In this document: piece by piece, positions 2,234 to 57,790 of the stretch | How positions within the stretch are numbered: position 1 is the first letter of the stretch | How the letters are laid out: each line of letters starts with the position of its first letter | From: an uncultured Peptococcaceae bacterium | GTDB taxonomy: Bacteria > Bacillota > DSM-12270 > Thermacetogeniales > Thermacetogeniaceae | Reading direction: 5' to 3' | NCBI GenBank assembly: GCA_963768335.1 | Contig: CAVYHR010000006.1 | Location: 1 to 64,000 of the forward strand | DNA length: 64,000 bases | The notes under the pieces: model-generated | Told to the model about the DNA's origin: nothing | Databases searched by the model: none | What the model saw: only the letters and a program-made list of their open reading frames with translations | Translations under genes and position numbers: made by a program

Positions 2234-4985
2234 TCATCCGGTCCTTGTCCGGCTTGCAGTTCCGGCCCAGACATGGCAGATCGGTTTGCCAAGCTTTTTC
2301 GCCAGATCGACTATCTCCCCGGTGCCGCCCCGTCCCTGGGCTTTCCTGCCGTCCCAGACCGCCACCATCACGTCGCTGTGCTCCACAATGTAGCGCCCGG
2401 ACCTCAGATAGGCCTCGCCCCGGGTCGGCGCGGGGGGCATGACGATGGTCTCGATGGCGCGCTCCGCCAGCCAGTAGCGAAACTCCTGCCTCAGCTCGGC
2501 CTCGTCGTAGTCCAGGCGGTGCTCGTCAGTGGGGCCAAAGTCTTTGATGTAGTCATCCAGAGGCACCGGCAGCACCACGATCAACCGGGCCGCCTCGTTC
2601 TTGAGCAGGGCACGGGCCACCAGCCGGTCGGCCCCGATAGCCAGGGGGGAGAAGACCGTCAGGTAGTGTTCCGGGAATTGGGACTCGATAAAGGTCACCG
2701 CTCTGGCGACTCCTGCCTCCAGTTCGGCCATCCGTTCCGGGTCGAGCCAGACATGGCCGGTGATACCCACCCTGAGCATCTCCCGGTGGCCCAGCCTGGT
2801 GAGGGCATCGAACTCCCCGGCATCGACGTGCATCTCTAAAATGTGGTCCGGGGGCAGACTGGACAGGGCGAAACTCCGCCTCTCATCAAGGTTGCTCATC
2901 CTGACCAGGGTCTCCATGGAGCGGGCCTCATAACGATAGCGGTTAACCTTCAGGAAGGCATCCAGCACCCCCCGGTCCACCTGAAACCGGTCGCCCTTCT
3001 TGATGTGCGGGGCTGATATCTCCAGGCAGCGGTTCAAGAGAAACGCCCGCCGGATGGGGAACATCCGGTCCTCGACAGTGTTGGGATGACCGTTCACGCC
3101 CTTCACGTCGATGTAGGCCCGCAGCCTGCTGATGAAATCGGGTTTTTTGGCAGCCGCCTTCTCCCCGCCGGAGCCGGCGCAGAACTCCTTGAAGGAGTGT
3201 CCGGTCGCCCCGGTGAAGACGTAGATGCCGCCGCCCAGCGGGTGCCCGCTGCCATGGTCGTTGAACTCGCCGTCCTGCATGGGCGCCAGAAAATCCGCAG
3301 CCAGCCCAGCGGGATGCCCTCGCAGGGTGCGTCGAACTCGTCCCAGAAGACCAGGGGCATCTTTCCCCTCAGGCGCCGGTCCCTGATCTGGTGGAAGGCC
3401 TGGGCGAGTTCCCGGGGCGATGTAAACTGGGAGAGGTTGAAGGTCAGTTGGGCGTTTTCGGCAATCCCCAGACCCCTGGCAATCTCCTTGACAACGAAGG
3501 ACTTGCCGGCCCCAGGGGGCCCGAACACCGCCACGCAGAGCGGTGTTTGCAGGCGCTGCTGCTTTAAATAGTCCGCCATAGCGTTGTAGACGCTGCGCAC
3601 GCCCTCGATCTCGCGCCGGTCGGCGCTGCGCCAGTTACCGACCATTTCCACGGGGACGTCGGGCAGGGCCACCCCGGGCCCCTCCTCCACGATCATCCGG
3701 GCGTACTCGAAAACCGCGTCCATGGTCCTGGAACCCCTGGCAACGCTTGCTTCCGTAATTTGCGCACCCGCCCGGCCCCTGTTCTCCTTGACCGCCTCTT
3801 CAAGGATGGACCACCCCGCCCGAGGCGGCGCCGCACCGGGTGCTCCCTGGGGGCGGCGCCCGCCTTCACTACGGGCCAGACCCCTGACATCCTGAAAAAT
3901 CCCCAGGTCCCATATTTTATCGGTCCTCTTGTCACCCGTTCCCTCGTGATAAGCCTTCACCAACCGCTGGCAGGGAAACTGGAGGCGCTGGCAGTCTCCT
4001 GCCGCCACCACCTCGCAACCATCCAGGTAAAGCAGCCGGGCCAGGGCGATACCGTCCCGGGTCGCCCTGGACCAGTCAACGCCCGGTGGCCAGTTGACCC
4101 AGGCCGCGGCCAGAGCCCCCAGCACACAGGTATTGGCACCCGGCGCCTGCCTCGTAAGATGCCGGGCAAAGTCGCCCTCCTGGCCGGAGCGGTCAAAGAT
4201 CAGAGTGTCATGTTCCTGCCCTACGATCACCGCCCCGCTCGCCCCGACGGTGACGATCACCTGATGGAAGAGCAGGTTGTTCTGATCGTCGACAAAGGGG
4301 CCCCTCGGGCTGCAGACGGCAGCGATTATGGCCTCAAACAGCCTCTCCCAGGAAAGGGAAACCCCGACCCGTTGCGGGCAGGCCCGCAGGTCTCCGATAG
4401 AGGTCAGGATGGTGGTCCTGGCCGCCAGGTCGATGGCATGAAGCCTGGCCAGCAAGGGGTGCTCCCGGTCGCCGCCAAACCGGGCGAGCTGGAGGATGAT
4501 CTGCTCCGGCTTTCTGCCGCACCGCGCCCGGCGGGCGCCCGCTTCGGGCGCGGACCCGGCACCGCCTCCTCCGCATCCGGGCTAAGCCCGGCCTGAATGT
4601 CCGCTCGAGGCTGGCGCCTCGGCTGAAAGCCCGCCGACACACCGGGAATGCGGAGCACAGGTGGGCGCGGCACCCGCCGCTCTCCTAAAACCTCCGGCCA
4701 CCCCTCCGTGACACTGCGAAATCCCAGGCCGCTGTCGGCGATCACCAGCAGGTCCGGCAGGCCGGCAGGCCGGCCCTCGACCTCAGCCAGCTCCGGCGGG
4801 ATCATCTCTTTTAAAAACTGCAGGATCAGCGCCGACCCACCGGCCCGGGACATCAGGCGCGCCACTGCTGCCGGACGATCGGGCAGCCGGGGGTGGCTTT
4901 CGCCTCTGCTGTAATGATCCTCGCCCTGGATGGTCAGCCAGTCGACGGTGGGGTCGCCGCATACCTGCACCAGAAGTTTCGCCAT
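2234..4985 (-). CDS. large multidomain NTPase: degenerate ribokinase/PfkB-like domain + AAA+ ATPase + C-terminal LOG/SLOG-like Rossmann domain; split over three frames in this assembly
   Basis: The three track ORFs 4404..4985, 3103..4455 and 2234..3280 are colinear and each continues the protein-like sequence of the previous one. PfkB-like motifs: AGGSALILQFL and APGANTCVLGALAAAW (GAGD degenerated to GANT). Walker A CVAVFGPPGAGKSF, Walker B LVFWDEFD, sensor-1-like IYVFTGAT. LOG-like: LTVFSPLAIGADRL...LIVVLPVP and GRGGTGEIVDLAKKLGKPI (PGGxGTxEE-like). The shift near 3290 looks like GGG->GG. The other break coincides with repeat copy A. Confidence 0.6.
4563..4668. repeat. P1-type palindromic repeat, copy A, inside the NTPase coding region
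   Basis: CCTCCTCCGCATCCGGGCT-AAGCCCGGCCTGAATG...GAAAGCCCGCCGACACACCGGGAATGCGGAGCACAG. The outer arms CTCCGCAT(C)CGGG / CCCGGGAATGCGGAG are reverse complements. The terminal 35 nt matches copy B. Confidence 0.6.
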
Positions 4986-27026: not shown

Positions 27027-27226
27027 TTACTCTTCCTCCTCTATATCTCTCCTATCGAATGAGTTTGGCGCCACTGATAACGACAAGCTTCTCAACCTTG
27101 AAAACAGACGCAACTGTGTCTCCAGGAAAAAACTAACCCCAGCCATGAAGGCTGAGGTTCGTAAACACGTGCTTACTGAATCCCACCCCCTATCGTTCGT
27201 AGGGTAACACGGCGCGACTGGAACAG

Positions 27227-27385
27227 GCAGGTCTCCTGGCTCGGGTTCTTCGCCTGACCTGCCCTTCCCTGAAACGCTGTGCGCTCAAGTGGTAATGCAG
27301 TAGGCTCCCCCTCACAGTGGCGGGACCGCACCTTTCACCCAGCGCTCTGCTTCAAACCAGGTCCCCCTCATTGCATTATGTCAAC
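27227..27385 (-). ncRNA. cobalamin (AdoCbl) riboswitch in the cbiMN leader
   Basis: Minus-strand reading: ...GGTGAAAGGTGCGGTCCCGCCACTGTGAGGGGGAGC... (B12 box GCCACTG at plus 27311-27329), then ...CAGGGAAGGGCAGG...CCCGAGCCAGGAGACCTGCC. TTGACA lies about 20 nt upstream (plus 27379-27384). About 200 nt before the cbiM ATG. Confidence 0.75.
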
Positions 27386-27651
27386 TACTGGCGCGCGGCC
27401 GGGTGACACTGACAGCAACGCGGCGTGGAGCCTGAATCGCTGGGCTTCGGACTTCCCTTTTCAGCCCGTATTTAACGGGCCACCTGTTCCCCTTACGATG
27501 AAATTATCAAAGAACTTTTTTCAGTCCCCTTTTGCACAGAGACTACCACAGTCTGACAACGCCAACAACCACTGCCAATCCATAAAGGATTCGCCGTCAA
27601 GTTACATTCTCCTTCATGAAAAACAAAAACCGATCTTTTTTTTCTCATTCC

Positions 27652-28752: not shown

Positions 28753-29755
28753 CGCAAACCTTCCCTCCGGTTCTGATCTTGCCCGGGTAGCGCGGCCCCC
28801 CGCCGGTAAGGCGCAGGGAATAGTGGTCGCTGATCTCCGGAAATCGGGTACGCAAGCCCCGAATCAGTTGTTCATCAGCCTCGCGGCCGGGTGGCAGCAG
28901 TATCCCGACCACGGTGCCGCTGTGGGCTACATTGACCCCATAGGCGCCCCGGGCCAGGACATGATCGATGATCGCCTCCAGGTGAGGCTTGGGCAGGATG
29001 CGCTGGTTGGCGAGAGCGCTCATGGTGGCCCCCTCCCCCAGCTTGCCGGGATCCTGGCGCTGAAATCCATCCCGCACCAGTTGCAGAGCCTGTCTGATGG
29101 CAGGTTCATTGGCCGCGTTCAACTCGGCCAGATCGGAGCGTCGATGGAACTCCAGCGTGTCCACCGCTCCGCCGAAATCTAGCGCCAGCAGCCCCAGGGG
29201 GAACGGTTCCCCGATCCGCTCGAATATCCGGCCGTCAACGTGGTCGATCAGGACGATCCCCGCGGAGAAGGTGCCGTCCGAGGGCTCGATGGAGAGGGCG
29301 ATCTCCGCCACCGCCTCCGGAGTGAGCCGCCGGTTCAGGGCGACAGCCACGGCATAGCAGGCGGCAGACAGGTCGGCGGTGCTGCTGCCCATACCCTTGC
29401 CGATGGGCAGGCTGGAGGCCACGTCGATGACCGCCCCCAGGTTGGAGTAGCCCTCCCGGTCCAGAGCCTTGCGCACTGCCTGGGCGGTCTTGATGCGCTC
29501 CGCGGGAAACACGATCCGCCCGGCCCCCGGCGACGCATCTTCATTCATGACGGGAGCATCAGGTCTAACAGCGTCAAGAGGACTGCCGGCCTGCACGCTT
29601 GCAGTGCCGGGCACAGACCGGCCGGCGCCGGTGGTGACGGTCACCCTGCTGAACCAGTTCACCGGGCAGGTGACCAGAAAGTTGGTACCCGATAAAGTGC
29701 CCTGCACCAGCTCTCCGCAGGTGCCAGGCACCAGGGCGGTACCTCGCAAGATCAT
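28694..29755 (-). CDS. GHMP-family kinase, PduX-like L-threonine kinase (supplies Thr-P for the aminopropanol linker)
   Basis: PIGKGMGSSTADLSAA (GHMP motif). Sits between cobS and cobD. Overlaps cobD by 58 nt. Confidence 0.65.
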   Translation of the reverse strand: MILRGTALVPGTCGELVQGTLSGTNFLVTCPVNWFSRVTVTTGAGRSVPGTASVQAGSPLDAVRPDAPVMNEDASPGAGRIVFPAERIKTAQAVRKALDREGYSNLGAVIDVASSLPIGKGMGSSTADLSAACYAVAVALNRRLTPEAVAEIALSIEPSDGTFSAGIVLIDHVDGRIFERIGEPFPLGLLALDFGGAVDTLEFHRRSDLAELNAANEPAIRQALQLVRDGFQRQDPGKLGEGATMSALANQRILPKPHLEAIIDHVLARGAYGVNVAHSGTVVGILLPPGREADEQLIRGLRTRFPEISDHYSLRLTGGGPRYPGKIRTGGKVCVGQAPARRERCIGGSQVWH

Positions 29756-30597
29756 TGTAAACGGCCCCCCAGCAGGACTCCAATCAACAGCACGACTATC
29801 TCCGTCAGTTCGCTCAGCGCTCCGTAGGTATCCCCGGTCAATCCTCCGAGCAGGCGGGAGAGCCGGCCGGCAGTGAGATAGAATAGCAGGCCGGCCGCGA
29901 TAAAGATGCCGACTCCGGTCAATTTTAACAGAGCCACCAGCAGAAATAAAGAGATCCCGGTGGTGATCATCAGCATCTTATAATTGCCGTAGGTGGAGAA
30001 CAGCGATCCGATGCCCTGTTTGCGAGCGTAGGGAAACAGCACCTGCGCCCAGACCTGGGCCTGCCTCCCCAGCACCGGGGCCGCAAGCAGGTAGGGCAGC
30101 AGGTTGAAGCTGATCTGCGTGTACAGGCTGTACTTGAGGATCAGGATCAGGACGACGGCGATCACTCCGAAGGCGCCCACGTGGCTGTCCTTCATGAAAG
30201 CCAGGCGCTCCTCCCGGCTTCGTCCGCCGTACACCCCGTCGGTGGTGTCCATCAGGCCGTCCAGGTGCAGACCGCCGGTGAGGAAGACAGTCACGCAGAG
30301 GAGCAGGGCCGCCAGCACCGGGGCCGCCAGGAAACCCCGCAGCAGGTACCACAGGAGGCCGGTGATGATCCCCAGCAGCAGCCCAATCAGCGGAAACCAG
30401 TAGATACTGCGGCGGAAATCGTGTTCATCGAAGCGGCTCCACCTGCCGGGGACCGGAATGCGGGTCAGAAAGGCCAGGGCGCATAACAAAGACCGCACCA
30501 ATCGCATCTTCAAATCACTCCTCGAATCACCACACCGCGACCGCCGGACGCCGCCCACTGGCAGCCAGGGGTATCGGATAACTTCAGGCGCATTCAC
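29752..30597 (-). CDS. cobS: adenosylcobinamide-GDP ribazoletransferase (cobalamin synthase)
   Basis: LCALAFLTRIPVP...YWFPLIGLLLG, polytopic. Likely true start at the internal Met (MRLVRSLL, about 30507). The track N-terminus reads into repeat C. Confidence 0.85.
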   Translation of the reverse strand: MNAPEVIRYPWLPVGGVRRSRCGDSRSDLKMRLVRSLLCALAFLTRIPVPGRWSRFDEHDFRRSIYWFPLIGLLLGIITGLLWYLLRGFLAAPVLAALLLCVTVFLTGGLHLDGLMDTTDGVYGGRSREERLAFMKDSHVGAFGVIAVVLILILKYSLYTQISFNLLPYLLAAPVLGRQAQVWAQVLFPYARKQGIGSLFSTYGNYKMLMITTGISLFLLVALLKLTGVGIFIAAGLLFYLTAGRLSRLLGGLTGDTYGALSELTEIVVLLIGVLLGGRLQ

Positions 30598-30603
30598 ACT
30601 TCC

Positions 30604-30783
30604 ACAGATGACTACCCGCTCTAATGCCCCCGCTTCCTCCGCATCCGGGCTTACAGCCCGGCCTGAAGAATGCGGAGTACATCCGAAGCGGTGGAATAAG
30701 AGCGGCTACATCACTGTATTAACTGGCTCTAAGCGTCAGTGGGGGAAAACAACCCCCCACTGAAGCCAAGACCCAGTTGAAAG
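30604..30783. repeat. P2-type ~135-nt multi-hairpin repeat (copy C) carrying a nested P1 hairpin (30641..30684)
   Basis: Shares CACAGATGACTACCCGCTCTAATGCCCCCGCTTCCTCC...GAAGCGGTGGAATAAGAGCGGCTACATCACTGTATTAACTGGCTCTAAGC-GTCAGTGGGGG...CCCCCCACTGAAGCCAAGACCCAGTTGAA with copy D. Carries an extra insert GCATCCGGGCTTACAGCCCGGCCTGAAGAATGCGGAGTACATCC. Confidence 0.65.
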
Positions 30784-30795
30784 GCCGGCAAGCGC

Positions 30796-31785
30796 TCAAC
30801 ATCGAGCAAGAAGCACCCATCCAACGGTAGCCAGGACCAGAAAGATGGCCACCGTGCCGTAGAGCATCCTGATCGCCGCCTCGATGTGGCCCGGCGCCAG
30901 GGGTTCTTTCGGGTCGCCCAACCGCGCCCGCAGCGATGGCATACCCTGGTAGTAGTTCAGTCCGCCCAGTTGCACCCCCAGGGCGCCGGCCATGGCAGCC
31001 TCCGGATACCCACTGTTGGGGCTGGGGTGTTTATGCGCGTCCCGCCAGGGTAGCATCCAGGCCCGGCGCCAGTCGAGGCCGAGCAGCAGGGCGGCGCCTA
31101 CCATTAGCAGCATGGTCAGCCGGGCCGGCAAAAAATTGACCACGTCGTCCAGCCGGGCTGCGACCATTCCGAAATCCTGGTAGCGCTCGCTCCGGTAGCC
31201 GACCATGGAATCAAGGGTGTTGATCGCCCGGTAGGCGCAGGCCAGGGCGGGGCCGCCCAGCAAGAAATAGAACAGCGGAGCGATCACTCCGTCGGAAATG
31301 TTCTCGGCCACCGTCTCTACCGTCGCCCTGGCGATCTCCGCCGGATCCAGCCGGTCGGTGTCCCGCCCGACGATCAAACCCACCCGCCGCCGGGCCTCCG
31401 CCAGGTCACCCCGGCGCAGCAGGCCGAGAGTCTCCCGGGCCGCCCGGTCGAGGCTGCGGATGGAGATGGTCGCCCAGAGGAAAAGGGCGCTCACCACCAA
31501 GTATATGTAGGCCCACAGTTGTGGATGATCAGCGGACAGGGACAGCCTGTGCAGCCAGGTCAGACACAGATAGACCAGCAGCCACACCGGCAGCACCGTT
31601 CCCAGCACGAGCAGGGCGCCCGCCACCCGCTTCGCCGGCAGCGAGGCGGCGCCATGTCCGCCGGCGCGACCGTACAGCAGGCGCTCCCAGGCAGAGATCA
31701 GCCTGCCGATCAGAGCGACCGGGTGATAGTCGACCCTGGGGTCTCCGATGAGAAGATCCAGGAGCACCGCCAGCAGCAGCACCAC
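30796..31785 (-). CDS. cbiB: adenosylcobinamide-phosphate synthase
   Basis: MVLLLAVLLDLLIGDP...HPVALIGRLIS... CobD/CbiB family membrane protein. Confidence 0.9.
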   Translation of the reverse strand: MVLLLAVLLDLLIGDPRVDYHPVALIGRLISAWERLLYGRAGGHGAASLPAKRVAGALLVLGTVLPVWLLVYLCLTWLHRLSLSADHPQLWAYIYLVVSALFLWATISIRSLDRAARETLGLLRRGDLAEARRRVGLIVGRDTDRLDPAEIARATVETVAENISDGVIAPLFYFLLGGPALACAYRAINTLDSMVGYRSERYQDFGMVAARLDDVVNFLPARLTMLLMVGAALLLGLDWRRAWMLPWRDAHKHPSPNSGYPEAAMAGALGVQLGGLNYYQGMPSLRARLGDPKEPLAPGHIEAAIRMLYGTVAIFLVLATVGWVLLARC

Positions 31786-37969: not shown

Positions 37970-38165
37970 TCAAAACTGTCTTGTTTTGTAAATTCCAATT
38001 CAACCCCCTCCTGCTCCCTTTTGGCCACTCCTTTTCTCTTGTACCGGCTTCAACAAGCAATCTGCAAAACCATGGTTCGACATTTTTCAAGCAAAATATT
38101 TTTCCAGGTTGCCTTTTGCCAGTTGACGTAATATACTGATTCTGACAACTGAATATAACATTCCT

Positions 38166-38320
38166 TCGTTAGGTGAGGCTTCTGCGTAGACAGACGCCAC
38201 TGCCCGGAAACGTCGAAAGACGCCAAATGGGTCAACAGGTATTACCGGCTTAAGGTTCTACCTAATGTGGCTGAGGGACAATCTCTAAGCTGCGCACGTG
38301 TCAAAACTCGACGAGTGGGG
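38166..38320 (+). ncRNA. M-box (ykoK-type) Mg2+ riboswitch
   Basis: TTCGTTAGGTGAGGCTTCTGCGTAGACAGACGCCACTGCCCGGAAACGTCGAAAGACGCCAAATGGGTCAACAG... Near-identical to the B. subtilis mgtE leader core (TTCGTTAGGTGAGGCT...GACGCTAATGGGTCAACAG). Confidence 0.85.
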
Positions 38321-38347
38321 GGATGAGGTATTGGCATTTATGAGACT

Positions 38348-41676: not shown

Positions 41677-41850
41677 ATGGCAGTGGCACTGAGGACTTTC
41701 GAGGAGCTTGAGCATCGGGACGCAGAGGTGAAGAGGCCGGGATTGAAACTCGAAAAACGGGCCGAGACAGGCAGGGTAGAGTACGAATTCCCCTATGACG
41801 ACCTCTACCAGATGTACGACTACATCACCAAAGAACTGGGTATCAAGTAA
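41677..41850 (+). CDS. small hypothetical protein (57 aa), tandem paralogue 1
   Basis: RBS AGGGGAGAGGG then ATG. MAVALRTFEELEHRDAEVKRPGLKLEKRAETGRVEYEFPYDDLYQMYDYITKELGIK. Below the ORF-track cutoff. The whole unit, including the RBS, is tandemly duplicated. Confidence 0.5.
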   Translation: MAVALRTFEELEHRDAEVKRPGLKLEKRAETGRVEYEFPYDDLYQMYDYITKELGIK

Positions 41851-41922
41851 CAACAACCGGGTAGAGATCTTAAAAAAAACAGGCCGCCGGAAGCGGGGCC
41901 GGAATGAGGGGAGAGGGCGAAC

Positions 41923-42096
41923 ATGGCAGTGGCACTGAGGACTTTCGAGGAGCCTGAGCATCGGGACGCAGAGATCAAGATACCGGTTTGGACACAGCAA
42001 GAGCGGATCGAGAGAGGCAAACTCGAGTACGAATTCCCTTATGACGACCTCTACCAGATGTACGACTACATCACCCAAGAACTGGGCATCAGGTAG
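41923..42096 (+). CDS. small hypothetical protein (57 aa), tandem paralogue 2
   Basis: MAVALRTFEEPEHRDAEIKIPVWTQQERIERGKLEYEFPYDDLYQMYDYITQELGIR. Same RBS and leader as paralogue 1. Confidence 0.5.
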   Translation: MAVALRTFEEPEHRDAEIKIPVWTQQERIERGKLEYEFPYDDLYQMYDYITQELGIR

Positions 42097-42142
42097 GATA
42101 TGAAAGCAACGATAAAAAGCAAAGCCTCTGTCGACTGCTAGC

Positions 42143-43191: not shown

Positions 43192-44286
43192 CTAACCACC
43201 AACCACCAAAATCGTCCCGCCCCCCAGCACCACGTCGCCGTCGTACAGAACCACCGCCTGGCCCGGGGTGATCGCCTTCTGGGGTGCCTGGAAGTCCACC
43301 CGGAGCCGGTCTTCGCCAATGGCTGCGGCCACCGCCCCCGCCCGCGGCGCCTTGTAGCGGATCTTGGCCGTGACCGGCTGCGGCCGTTCGAGAGGCATCC
43401 CTGAGATGTAGTTGACATCGCCGGCGATCAGGCTGTTTTGATAGAGATCCCGCTCCGCCCCCACCCACACGGTGTTGGTCTGGAGATCGATCCGGGTCAC
43501 GTACAGCGGGTAGTCAGACGTCAGCCCCAGACCCTTGCGCTGACCGACGGTATAGCAGCAGACGCCCCGGTGGCGGCCGAGGACCTGCCCATCTGTGTGT
43601 CTGAACAACCCCTCAGCCCCCGTGGAGCCCGTTCTCTCGGCCACGAAGCCGGCGTAACTCTGCCCGGAGACGAAACAGATCTCCTGGCTCTCGGCCTTTT
43701 CCGCCACTGTCAGGTCAGCCTGGCGGGCGATCCGCCGTACCTCCTGCTTGCGGTATTCTCCCAGGGGAAAGAGGGTGTGCTCCAGTTGCTGCTGGGTCAT
43801 CTGGTAGAGGGCGTAGGTCTGGTCCTTGGAGGCGTCCGCCGCCGTGCGCAGTTGCCACCTTCCGTCATCGTCCCGCTCGATCCGGGCGTAGTGTCCGGTG
43901 GCCAGGTAGTCCGCCCCCAGGCCACGGGCCTTGTGCAGCAGCGTCCCAAACTTGAGGTAACGGTTGCAGGCGATACACGGGTTAGGGGTGCGGCCGGCGT
44001 GATACTCCCTGCAGAAGTAGCTGATCACCCGGTTCTCAAACTCCGCACGGAAATCCAGGACGTAGTGGGGGATGCCCAACTGCCAGGCTACCCGCCTGGC
44101 ATCGTCGATGGCCGACAGCCCACAGCAACTGCGGTCGCCGCTGGAGCTCGGCCAGACCTGCATGGTGACGCCGGCCACCTCGTATCCCTGGCGCTTTAAC
44201 AGCAGGGCAGCCACGGAGCTGTCCACCCCGCCGCTCATGGCCACCACCACCCGCCGCGGATTTGCTACTTTTCCACCATCGCTCAC
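43192..44286 (-). CDS. mnmA: tRNA 2-thiouridine(34) synthase
   Basis: GTG start. VVVAMSGGVDSSVAA (PP-loop)...catalytic Cys motifs. The C-terminus LVVGG is encoded by a TGGTGGT-type tandem repeat. Confidence 0.9.
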   Translation of the reverse strand: MSDGGKVANPRRVVVAMSGGVDSSVAALLLKRQGYEVAGVTMQVWPSSSGDRSCCGLSAIDDARRVAWQLGIPHYVLDFRAEFENRVISYFCREYHAGRTPNPCIACNRYLKFGTLLHKARGLGADYLATGHYARIERDDDGRWQLRTAADASKDQTYALYQMTQQQLEHTLFPLGEYRKQEVRRIARQADLTVAEKAESQEICFVSGQSYAGFVAERTGSTGAEGLFRHTDGQVLGRHRGVCCYTVGQRKGLGLTSDYPLYVTRIDLQTNTVWVGAERDLYQNSLIAGDVNYISGMPLERPQPVTAKIRYKAPRAGAVAAAIGEDRLRVDFQAPQKAITPGQAVVLYDGDVVLGGGTILVVGG

Positions 44287-44354
44287 TGTGTTATCTCACC
44301 GTCCAGGATTATCCGTTCCGGGTGGCTCTAGAAAGGTTGCAGCCTCTCATCGCC

Positions 44355-44490
44355 ACAGATGACTACCCGCTCTAATGCCCCCGCTTCCTCCGAAGCGGTG
44401 GGATAAGAGCGGCTACGTCACTGTATTAACTGGCTCTAAGCTTCAGTGGGGGCAAGCAATCCCCCACTTAAGCCAAGACCCAGTTGAATC
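44355..44490. repeat. P2-type ~135-nt multi-hairpin repeat (copy D), flanked by diverged ~45-bp direct repeats
   Basis: About 88% identical to copy C but without the nested P1 insert. Flanks 44305-44354 and 44497-44545 both read ATTATCCG(T/C)TCCGGGTGG...GGTTGCAGC. The right copy encodes the FdhD C-terminus. Confidence 0.65.
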
Positions 44491-44491
44491 A

Positions 44492-45343
44492 TCACTCAAG
44501 AATTATCCGCTCCGGGTGGGCGTAGAGGTTGCAGCGGTTGCCCCTGGCGAAGCCTGCCACCGTCACCCCCAGGTCGTCGGCCAACTGCAGCGCCAGGTCG
44601 GTGGGCGCCGAACGGGAGATCAGTACAGGCACCCCCATTTTGGCGACCTTGAGCACTATCTCCGAGGAGACCCGGCCGCTGAAGACGATGGTCTTATCCT
44701 CCCGGGGGATCTCCTCCAGAAAACACTGGCCGTAGATCTTGTCCAGGGTGTTGTGGCGCCCGATGTCCTCCCGGAAGATCAGGATCTCCCCGTCTTTGGC
44801 CAGGGCCGCCCCATGCACGCCGCCGGTGCGCCGGAACAGGTGCGACCGTTCCTGCAACTGCTCCGCCAGGCTCAACACCGTGGCCAGTGGCACTTGCAGG
44901 GTAGCGGTCACCGGTTTGCAGAGCATGGCGTCCGCCGCAAAGTAGAACGAGGCCCGGGCGCGCCCGCAGCAGGGTGTGATGTAGCGCTTGAGAAACACCT
45001 TCTCCCCCAGGTGATCCCGGCAGGTGGTCACCCAGGCCATCCCCTGCTCCTCATCGATGCTGATCTGTTCGAGGTCGCCGCGCTGGAGCAGGATCCCCTC
45101 TGCGCAGAGAAAGCCCACCGCCATATACTTGAGGTCCACCGGGGAACAGACCAGGGTGGCCAGCTCTCTGTCATTGACGTTGACCGTGAGCGCCGCCTCC
45201 CGCACCACGATGTCTTCGTCATCGGTGGCGCCGGCCTCATCAACCCTGGTGATGCGCCGCCTGATCACTGTCGCCCCGTACTCGTCCTTCATATAATCGT
45301 CGCCTCCTGCCGCGCCGCCACCGGGGACGGTTTTCACTGTCAC
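44492..45343 (-). CDS. fdhD: formate dehydrogenase accessory sulfurtransferase
   Basis: FdhD fold with CCG motif (ITPCCGRARAS). Confidence 0.85.
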   Translation of the reverse strand: MTVKTVPGGGAAGGDDYMKDEYGATVIRRRITRVDEAGATDDEDIVVREAALTVNVNDRELATLVCSPVDLKYMAVGFLCAEGILLQRGDLEQISIDEEQGMAWVTTCRDHLGEKVFLKRYITPCCGRARASFYFAADAMLCKPVTATLQVPLATVLSLAEQLQERSHLFRRTGGVHGAALAKDGEILIFREDIGRHNTLDKIYGQCFLEEIPREDKTIVFSGRVSSEIVLKVAKMGVPVLISRSAPTDLALQLADDLGVTVAGFARGNRCNLYAHPERIILE

Positions 45344-57737: not shown

Positions 57738-57790
57738 CTCCTCCGCATCCGGGCTACGCCCGGTCCGAAGAATGCGGAGTACATCGCTAC
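57716..57790. repeat. P1-type palindromic repeat copy E with adjacent GTGAGATGTGGGATCTCAC palindrome
   Basis: GGTGAGATGTGGGATCTCACCTCCTCCGCATCCGGGCTACGCCCGGTCCGAAGAATGCGGAGTACATCGC. In the yqfC-yqfD spacer. Confidence 0.6.

Follow-up and report, generated by a model that had tools for sequence, protein, structure and literature searches.

Introduction

PATEs of the IS200/IS605 type, such as those of ISGst in Geobacillus stearothermophilus and those of Haloquadratum, are short, non-coding elements with hairpins at both ends on one strand, without terminal inverted repeats and without target duplication. They insert 3' of an AT-rich pentamer, the transposon-adjacent motif (TAM; TTTAT or TTCAT in ISGst), carry a related pentamer, the transposon-encoded motif (TEM; TTCAC in ISGst, given for ISGst2), at the right boundary, far outnumber the tnpA transposase genes and often carry omega-RNAs, and TnpA can take in extra DNA via a downstream look-alike motif (PMC10055086). 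The omega-RNA genes at IS200/IS605 right ends, which encode guide RNAs for TnpB or IscB, are structures of ~130 nt that end at the transposon boundary, where they adjoin a possible guide sequence, and their target motif is the TAM. REPs are palindromes of 20-40 nt, one end of which carries GTAG (or CGTC) as an invariant tag (PMC3733652). In REP, BIME and REPIN systems with a RAYT, such extragenic units occur in hundreds of copies, in both orientations and as mosaics; a Y1 enzyme acting on single-stranded DNA probably handles them, and long maintenance is possible. MITEs of Firmicutes (bcr1 of Bacillus cereus, RUP and BOX; listed in PMC3733652) are small, structured repeats in intergenic and intra-operon positions that are co-transcribed with neighbouring genes.

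Here we describe a family of repeats represented by two copies, C and D, in the window, by which we mean the whole 64-kb stretch of DNA analysed. Its members resemble PATEs in their short, non-coding form, their hairpins and the nature of their ends, with TTNAY as the pentamer on the 5' side and TTGAA/TTAAC as the related pentamer at the right boundary, and in copies that far outnumber transposase genes. With REPs they share extragenic palindromic units, high copy number, both orientations and mosaics; with the Firmicute MITEs their small size, structure and location; and with omega-RNA genes a structure of similar length that ends at the element boundary. The family is a selfish, gene-less hairpin repeat of peat-soil Firmicutes, previously unnamed but of a kind already known.

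Results

Two operon spacers of the window hold copies of one element

Reading and alignment of both regions confirmed the two related multi-hairpin copies of the original prediction; they are the only ones in the 64-kb window. Their locations (30604-30783 and 44355-44490) stood, and the limits moved by 1-2 nt to those given in Table 1. With the P1 insert taken out, copies C and D agree at 127 of 135 positions and differ by 7 mismatches and one gap, an identity of ~94% rather than the ~88% first reported. The left 40 nt are identical, and the flanks of the two copies are unrelated. As proposed, the extra hairpin of copy C, P1, occupies the apex loop of the first hairpin (module A). It measures 44 nt relative to D and 45 nt relative to the family consensus apex, which it interrupts between GCTTC and TCCGAAGC; the full insert is CTCCGCATCCGGGCTTACAGCCCGGCCTGAAGAATGCGGAGTACA, of the form CTCCGCATCC...GGAGTACA. 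Folding gave two hairpins per copy, not three, the supposed AGTGGGGG/CCCCCACT hairpin being the tip of the AACTGG/CCAGTT hairpin. Both copies do lie between co-oriented genes inside apparent operons, minus-strand cbiB-cobS and fdhD-mnmA, whose assignments have Pfam support. The defined top strand of the element is antisense to the flanking genes at both sites.

Table 1. Copies of the element, their modules and neighbouring features in the window
Feature	Position	Strand	Basis or remark
Copy C, composite of module A (interrupted by P1) and module B, 179 nt	30603..30781	+	nhmmer 1-134, E=8e-37
Hairpin module A of copy C (CACAGATGACTACCCGCTCTAAT ... ATAAGAGCGGCTACATCACTGTA)	30603..30718	+	folding of copy D; covariation helices 1-2
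P1 module (CTCCGCATCC...GAATGCGGAG+TACA, 45 nt) in the module A apex loop	30637..30681	+	same composite in L026, L055, L058, L061, L071
Hairpin module B of copy C; TTAACTGG pairs with CCAGTTGA; 3' end GTTGAA invariant	30719..30781	+	helices 3-4
5' flank of copy C, ACTTC, at the target-motif position	30598..30602	+	fits the TTNAY logo only at -1
cbiB (CobD_Cbib), upstream of copy C on the gene strand	30796..31785	-	Pfam match on called gene
cobS, downstream of copy C	29752..30507	-	Pfam match on called gene
Copy D, uninterrupted composite, 135 nt	44354..44488	+	nhmmer E=3e-43; base-precise empty site in L065
Hairpin module A of copy D	44354..44425	+	folding
Hairpin module B of copy D (TTAAC ... 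GTTGAA)	44426..44488	+	folding, covariation
5' flank of copy D, target motif: ATCGC (ATCAC at the relative's empty site)	44349..44353	+	L065 comparison
fdhD (start codon uncertain), upstream of copy D on the gene strand	44492..45343	-	Pfam match on called gene
mnmA, downstream of copy D	43192..44286	-	Pfam match on called gene
Free-standing long P1-type module with a further hairpin nested inside	4569..4659	+	dozens of relatives in fetched loci
Compound P1-type cluster: long P1 containing an inverted P1	8957..9095	+	sequence relatives of P1
Free-standing short P1 module	57741..57783	+	sequence relative of P1

The element belongs to a high-copy family

An exact 20-mer across the A/B junction was found at 63 loci of the species-representative genome set: 22 in Thermacetogeniaceae MAG SPRUCE 237, 20 in Peptococcaceae MAG MFD04492.bin.2.79, nine in Bacillota MAG053, seven in palsa_1188, four in bog_1190 and one in the isolate Thermoactinomyces mirandus, class Bacilli. 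Searched with an nhmmer profile, these 63 loci yielded 71 full copies, 28 A-only units, 12 B-only units and 25 partial matches. A looser pattern returned at least 120 further stretches from peat and bog metagenomes, and the matches listed from these (120 loci) added at least 94 more full copies, at least 71 A-only and at least 24 B-only units. The family therefore comprises at least ~165 full copies plus many half-copies, from at least five Thermacetogeniaceae/Peptococcaceae MAG species, peat metagenomes and one Thermoactinomyces, at a density of ~1 copy per 10 kb in the DNA sampled around matches. Judged by relatives of its CobS and MnmA, the window derives from a Thermacetogeniaceae-like organism. 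Plasmid and phage records (BLASTN) and viral contigs (exact scans) gave no match to the element. The copy in T. mirandus (L045 7184-7314; NZ_JACEOL010000003.1) is a near-consensus full copy that follows a terminator-like GGGGGTTTTTTTAT; its presence in the class Bacilli suggests either transfer between classes or a much wider family.

Insertion is base-precise and follows a one-sided motif

Comparison with relatives revealed empty sites. In locus L065, whose MnmA is 87% identical to that of the window, the fdhD-mnmA spacer is 39 nt long and lacks copy D. In the window, copy D is placed exactly between CTCATC(A/G)C and TCATCAC of the L065 site, with nothing duplicated or lost, and its right flank at the aligned site is TCATCACTCAAG. 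Two further filled/empty pairs were also base-precise: L124/L020, with the element between TGATC and TCCTGCC, and L053/L008, with the element between TTTAAC and TTCG. No target-site duplication was found at these three precise empty sites. Coarser pairs were L013/L021 and, for copy C, the empty cbiB-cobS spacers of L074 (35 nt; CobS 85% identical) and L077 (41 nt; CobS 80% identical).

The 5' flanks of 79 independent, non-nested copies gave the logo TTNAY (from -5 to -1: T 72%, T 90%, N, A 68%, Y 99%), the commonest pentamers being TTTAT, TTGAC, TTTAC and TTCAC. Empty sites already carry this motif. The downstream flank of the same 79 copies had no information content, and no particular base is required after GTTGAA. 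A YTC motif precedes P1 insertions, again without duplication. The element thus inserts as a block and base-precisely, with a one-sided, T-rich TTNAY motif on its 5' side. Nearly all copies are intergenic. Relative to their neighbours, 22 are co-oriented, 14 opposed and 17 in mixed settings (10 between divergent and 7 between convergent genes), and no bias was seen. Nor was there a bias against the sign of the local GC skew (35:33), which is a proxy for the replication strand only.

Some local features of the two spacers were also recorded. The empty fdhD-mnmA spacer of L065 (2259-2297) contains three tandem GTGATGA units, and copy D of the window lies exactly at a unit boundary. Copy D is bracketed by an imperfect direct repeat of ~40 nt (44305-44345 and 44499-44537; 33 of 41 positions identical), of which the right-hand unit forms the 3' end of fdhD and the left-hand unit is a non-coding relic. 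This repeat is absent from L065, suggesting that a local duplication accompanied or preceded the insertion. The cbiB-cobS spacer holds ~95 nt of extra non-element DNA (30508-30602) that is common to SPRUCE 237 and absent in more distant relatives; no repeats of it were found among the sampled loci.

The two hairpins are maintained by compensatory change

The element unit of 134 nt consists of two long hairpins, module A of ~72 nt with a variable tip, spanning CACAG to CACTGTA, and module B of ~62 nt, joined by ATTAAC. The outer stem of module B pairs TTAACTGG with CCAGTTGA, and its tip is a GGGGG/CCCCC helix. An alignment of 60 distinct copies showed sharp ends, with CACAGATG at the 5' end and an invariant GTTGAA at the 3' end (5' CACAG ... 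GTTGAA 3' for the family). These termini are not inverted repeats of each other (CACAGATG... against ...CAGTTGAA); likewise, CACAGATGAC... is not the reverse complement of ...CCCAGTTGAA. In both modules the basal stem carries GCTCTAA...AAGA(G/C)C, whose columns are the best conserved in the alignment, and the tips differ in length and sequence. The shared stems suggest that one protein could plausibly recognise both modules.

Compared with shuffled sequences, the fold reached z = -9.0 (minus strand) and z = -7.8 (plus strand), and none of 200 shuffles was equally stable. In the consensus structure of 28 pairs, 97.2% of cells were paired and nine pairs had changed on both sides. We counted 65 compensatory cells against 17.7 in shuffles (0 of 500 reached 65), and structures slid by 1-3 columns gave 0-7. 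A second subfamily, whose copies start CGATG or CGAGG, has TAGTTCT/AGAACTA in the B stem instead of TGGCTCT/AGACCCA, a swap that amounts to a set of compensatory changes. GTTGAA is paired with the internal TTAAC; both are invariant in 60 of 60 copies, hence no covariation signal is possible there. The five outermost pairs of module B are likewise invariant in all 60 copies. No left-end guide was identified. Substitutions to wobble pairs (G-U against A-C) occupied ~25 and 21 cells outside one invariant T-G pair, favouring neither strand, so the structure is not assignable to an RNA from a particular strand.

Repeat modules nest within one another at several levels

The earlier proposal that the repeat families nest within one another was borne out by copy C and by nested loci in several species. 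P1 was found in the apex of module A in the window and in L026, L055, L058, L061 and L071, in three species. A whole A+B unit had entered the A/B junction after TTA(A/T)C in six loci (L007, L017, L041, L050, L056, L059), a subfamily-2 unit lay in the module B loop after CAAT in two (L064, L028), and P1 or a module of 95-180 nt lay in the internal loop of module B in L057, L038, L050 and L069-L071. All of these nested insertions fall in predicted loops or junctions, that is, in unpaired regions of the fold. This loop preference is consistent with insertion into folded single-stranded DNA, but would equally result if selection retained only copies still able to fold.

Module A was also found alone (L054, L060), as was module B (L041; in tandem in L034), which suggests that the 135-nt element is a composite now spreading as a block. 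The family is new and well-defined, with unusually clear multi-level nesting. In MAG053, a specific module of ~105 nt lies in the internal loop of hairpin A, between GGGATA and TAAGAGCGG (L022, L031 at two sites, L035, L005). It has the hairpins ATGCCCGGC/GCCGGGCAT and GGCCAC/GTGGCC, and the composite has itself multiplied.

Copy C predates one species split and copy D postdates another

Copy C, with its P1, occupies the same site in SPRUCE 237 (L071; CobS 91% identical), where module B holds further nested inserts. Copy C is therefore older than that species split, and the absence of copy D from L065 makes copy D younger than the split from this relative. Between the window and SPRUCE 237, cbiB is 92.9%, cobS 93.7% and the remaining spacer 87% identical. 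In contrast, positions 30603-30714 of the window, which cover the junction, hairpin A and P1, are identical to L071 at 112 of 112 positions, for which the probability at the coding divergence rate is ~4e-4 (0.93^112). A second same-site pair showed a similar but weaker excess of conservation. Possible causes are purifying selection, gene conversion among copies, or repeat collapse in short-read assemblies.

Discussion

A probable mobile element moved as single-stranded DNA

The many copies in several species, the empty sites in relatives and the nesting of families together point to a mobile element. Its hairpin ends, the lack of inverted termini and of target duplication, the one-sided pentamer and the related pentamer on the right suggest IS200/IS605-like single-stranded transposition. 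We consider it probable that C and D belong to a high-copy, non-autonomous element family of the IS200/IS605 PATE type or REP type that is moved via single-stranded DNA. By analogy with these systems, we infer both the mechanism of transposition and a Y1 (HUH) enzyme supplied in trans. Such a transposase would move the element as single-stranded DNA by 'peel-and-paste', with TTNAY acting as the TAM, and GTTGAA/TTAAC as the TEM and DNA guide. Other hairpin modules (P1, a second element copy, B-only units) would target the unpaired parts of the folded element and so produce the Russian-doll nesting, copy C being A+B with P1 in the A apex loop. Module B may have been joined after module A's own TTAAC end when TnpA captured extra DNA via a downstream look-alike motif. 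Of the possibilities first offered for the pair, namely MITEs, processing or attenuation sites, or a structured small RNA, the non-autonomous mobile element is upheld, and the classical MITE, regulatory and RNA options are not. In the window itself, C and D are best explained as fixed passengers in operon spacers.

The enzyme was sought in 1.6 Mb around the copies. The query was an IS200 TnpA confirmed as PF01797, and a Y1 HMM was built from five PDB-aligned TnpA sequences. Neither TnpA nor RAYT was found in these 1.6 Mb by tblastn, phmmer or the Y1 HMM, a scan for zinc-ribbon/RuvC motifs gave no TnpB-like gene in the same DNA, and no full-length parent with the same ends was seen there. All-against-all clustering of ORFs in the sampled loci revealed no multi-copy or recurrent ORF near the copies, and no A and B matches separated by cargo occurred in these loci. 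These results count against the PATE assignment. Further points against it, or differences from known PATEs, are that A and B also move or persist alone, more like REP units than a fixed LE/RE pair; that hairpin A (~60-70 nt), with its variable tip, exceeds the classical IS200/IS605 end hairpins; that nesting is pervasive and multi-level; that the family has no detectable nucleotide similarity to plasmid or phage records; and that the ACTTC flank of copy C fits the motif poorly. The same-site C copy in the sister species is also more conserved than the flanking genes, unlike a neutral passenger. Orientation was unbiased by the GC-skew proxy. A lagging-strand bias has been described for IS608-type elements but is not universal, and Meers et al. 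reportedly observed excision from either strand.

Alternative readings

The main rival is a REP/BIME-type system handled by a domesticated Y1 transposase (RAYT), under which A, B and P1 would be independent REP-like units and the 135-nt element would be a BIME-like mosaic of such units, spread as one block. The modules do occur singly and in several combinations, the copies are extragenic, numerous and in both orientations, the bottom strand of most A modules starts with GTAG followed by an imperfect palindrome, and the unusual conservation of same-site copies would be expected of host-maintained repeats. However, the modules measure 45-75 nt, compared with 20-40 nt for REPs (PMC3733652), and the GTAG tag is not invariant, the tag position on the top strand reading CTAC, CTAG, GTAC, TTAA or ATAC. 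The modules are thus not short palindromes with an invariant GTAG or CGTC tag. Insertion sequences typically show such sharp ends, a flank motif and precise empty sites, no RAYT-like gene was found in the 1.6 Mb around the copies, and the survey of REPs makes no mention of Firmicutes (PMC3733652). We regard a REP/RAYT system as unlikely.

An equally low chance attaches to the idea that the elements are kept for a function, either as trans-acting, omega-RNA-like guide genes for a TnpB or IscB encoded elsewhere or as host-selected structured sites, or that they form a REP-like, single-hairpin, modular system of Firmicutes that targets loops. Functional retention would explain the 112/112 identity despite the 7% difference in the flanking genes, and also the near-identical consensus across at least six species plus one member of the Bacilli. 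Unlike omega-RNA genes, however, the element matches no Rfam family, its wobble pairs show no asymmetry between the strands, and neither TnpB nor IscB turned up in the DNA sampled.

A functional multi-copy structured RNA, or an RNA or DNA protein-binding site (an mRNA stabiliser, a processing site, or a small or guide RNA gene), is quite improbable. The very stable fold (z about -8 to -9), the compensatory changes, the complete identity of A+P1 at cbiB-cobS in two species despite 93% identity of the flanking genes, and the omega-RNAs that PATEs often carry (PMC10055086) would all agree with it. However, compensatory change is equally expected of a single-stranded DNA transposition substrate, the orientation relative to genes is unbiased, and wobble substitutions single out neither strand. 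The host operons can do without the element, since it is missing from close relatives. The original prediction would have fallen to an Infernal match with a known RNA family; the Rfam scan gave no such match to the element, with only chance miRNA-type hits at E<=10. Promoter and terminator scans detected no promoter-like or terminator-like sites at the elements, and an intrinsic terminator was rejected on the same scan. A dedicated cis-regulatory or small-RNA role thus has no support. Any effect of the predicted -80 kcal/mol hairpins on the cbiB-cobS or fdhD-mnmA mRNAs would, speculatively, be a by-product.

Integron attC and IS110/bridge-RNA systems also insert at defined sequences without duplications. 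A product of site-specific recombination, with attC-like hairpins or an element of the IS110/bridge-RNA type, would account for the missing target duplication, and the bounds of module B, ATTAAC ... GTTGAA(C), loosely recall the attC core RYYYAAC/GTTRRRY. Yet TATTAAC departs from RYYYAAC, GTTGAA may be followed by any base, TTNAY stands on the 5' side only, no recombinase gene recurs near the copies, and the copies are single and scattered between genes rather than in cassette arrays beside an integrase. The attC assignment was rejected on the core-site misfit and the dispersed single copies, and site-specific recombination as a whole is very unlikely.

We consider a classical MITE derived from a DDE-transposase insertion sequence highly improbable. 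The element is small, non-coding, intergenic and multi-copy, and each pair of hairpin arms resembles an inverted repeat. However, bcr1, RUP and BOX have terminal inverted repeats and/or target duplications, whereas the element has neither: its termini are not mutual inverted repeats, and no precise empty site shows a duplication. This candidate was rejected for that reason. Finally, a single segmental duplication or chance similarity, which the presence of only two copies in the 64-kb window might suggest, is almost certainly wrong, being refuted by the unrelated flanks of C and D, by at least ~165 full copies elsewhere and, for chance, by exact matches of 42 nt or 20 nt that would not be expected. 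A segmental duplication was the other condition under which the original prediction would have fallen.

Implications and other features of the window

The probable assignment to elements moved as single-stranded DNA removes a tempting but false lead, since the elements are not riboswitch-like and are not attenuators of cobalamin or tRNA-modification operons. It also records a very abundant family of hairpin repeats in uncultured peatland relatives of acetogens or syntrophs. With its precise empty sites, TTNAY motif and loop-confined nesting, the family forms a clean natural data set in which to study transposition of single-stranded DNA. Short-read assemblies break at such repeats, which can inflate or collapse MAG contigs. 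If the same-site conservation is true, the elements would join REPs as selfish-looking repeats that are maintained by a host or by a guide-RNA system.

At the gathering threshold, Rfam 15 identified only two RNAs in the window, both away from the element: an M-box (Mg2+) riboswitch at 38158-38326 (+) and a cobalamin riboswitch at 27209-27502 (-), the latter among the cob genes, in the same region as copy C. Elsewhere in the window, two tandem small ORFs of ~57 aa (MAVALRTFEE...; 41678-41851 and 41924-42097) are 88% identical in DNA, and each has its own ribosome-binding-like leader.
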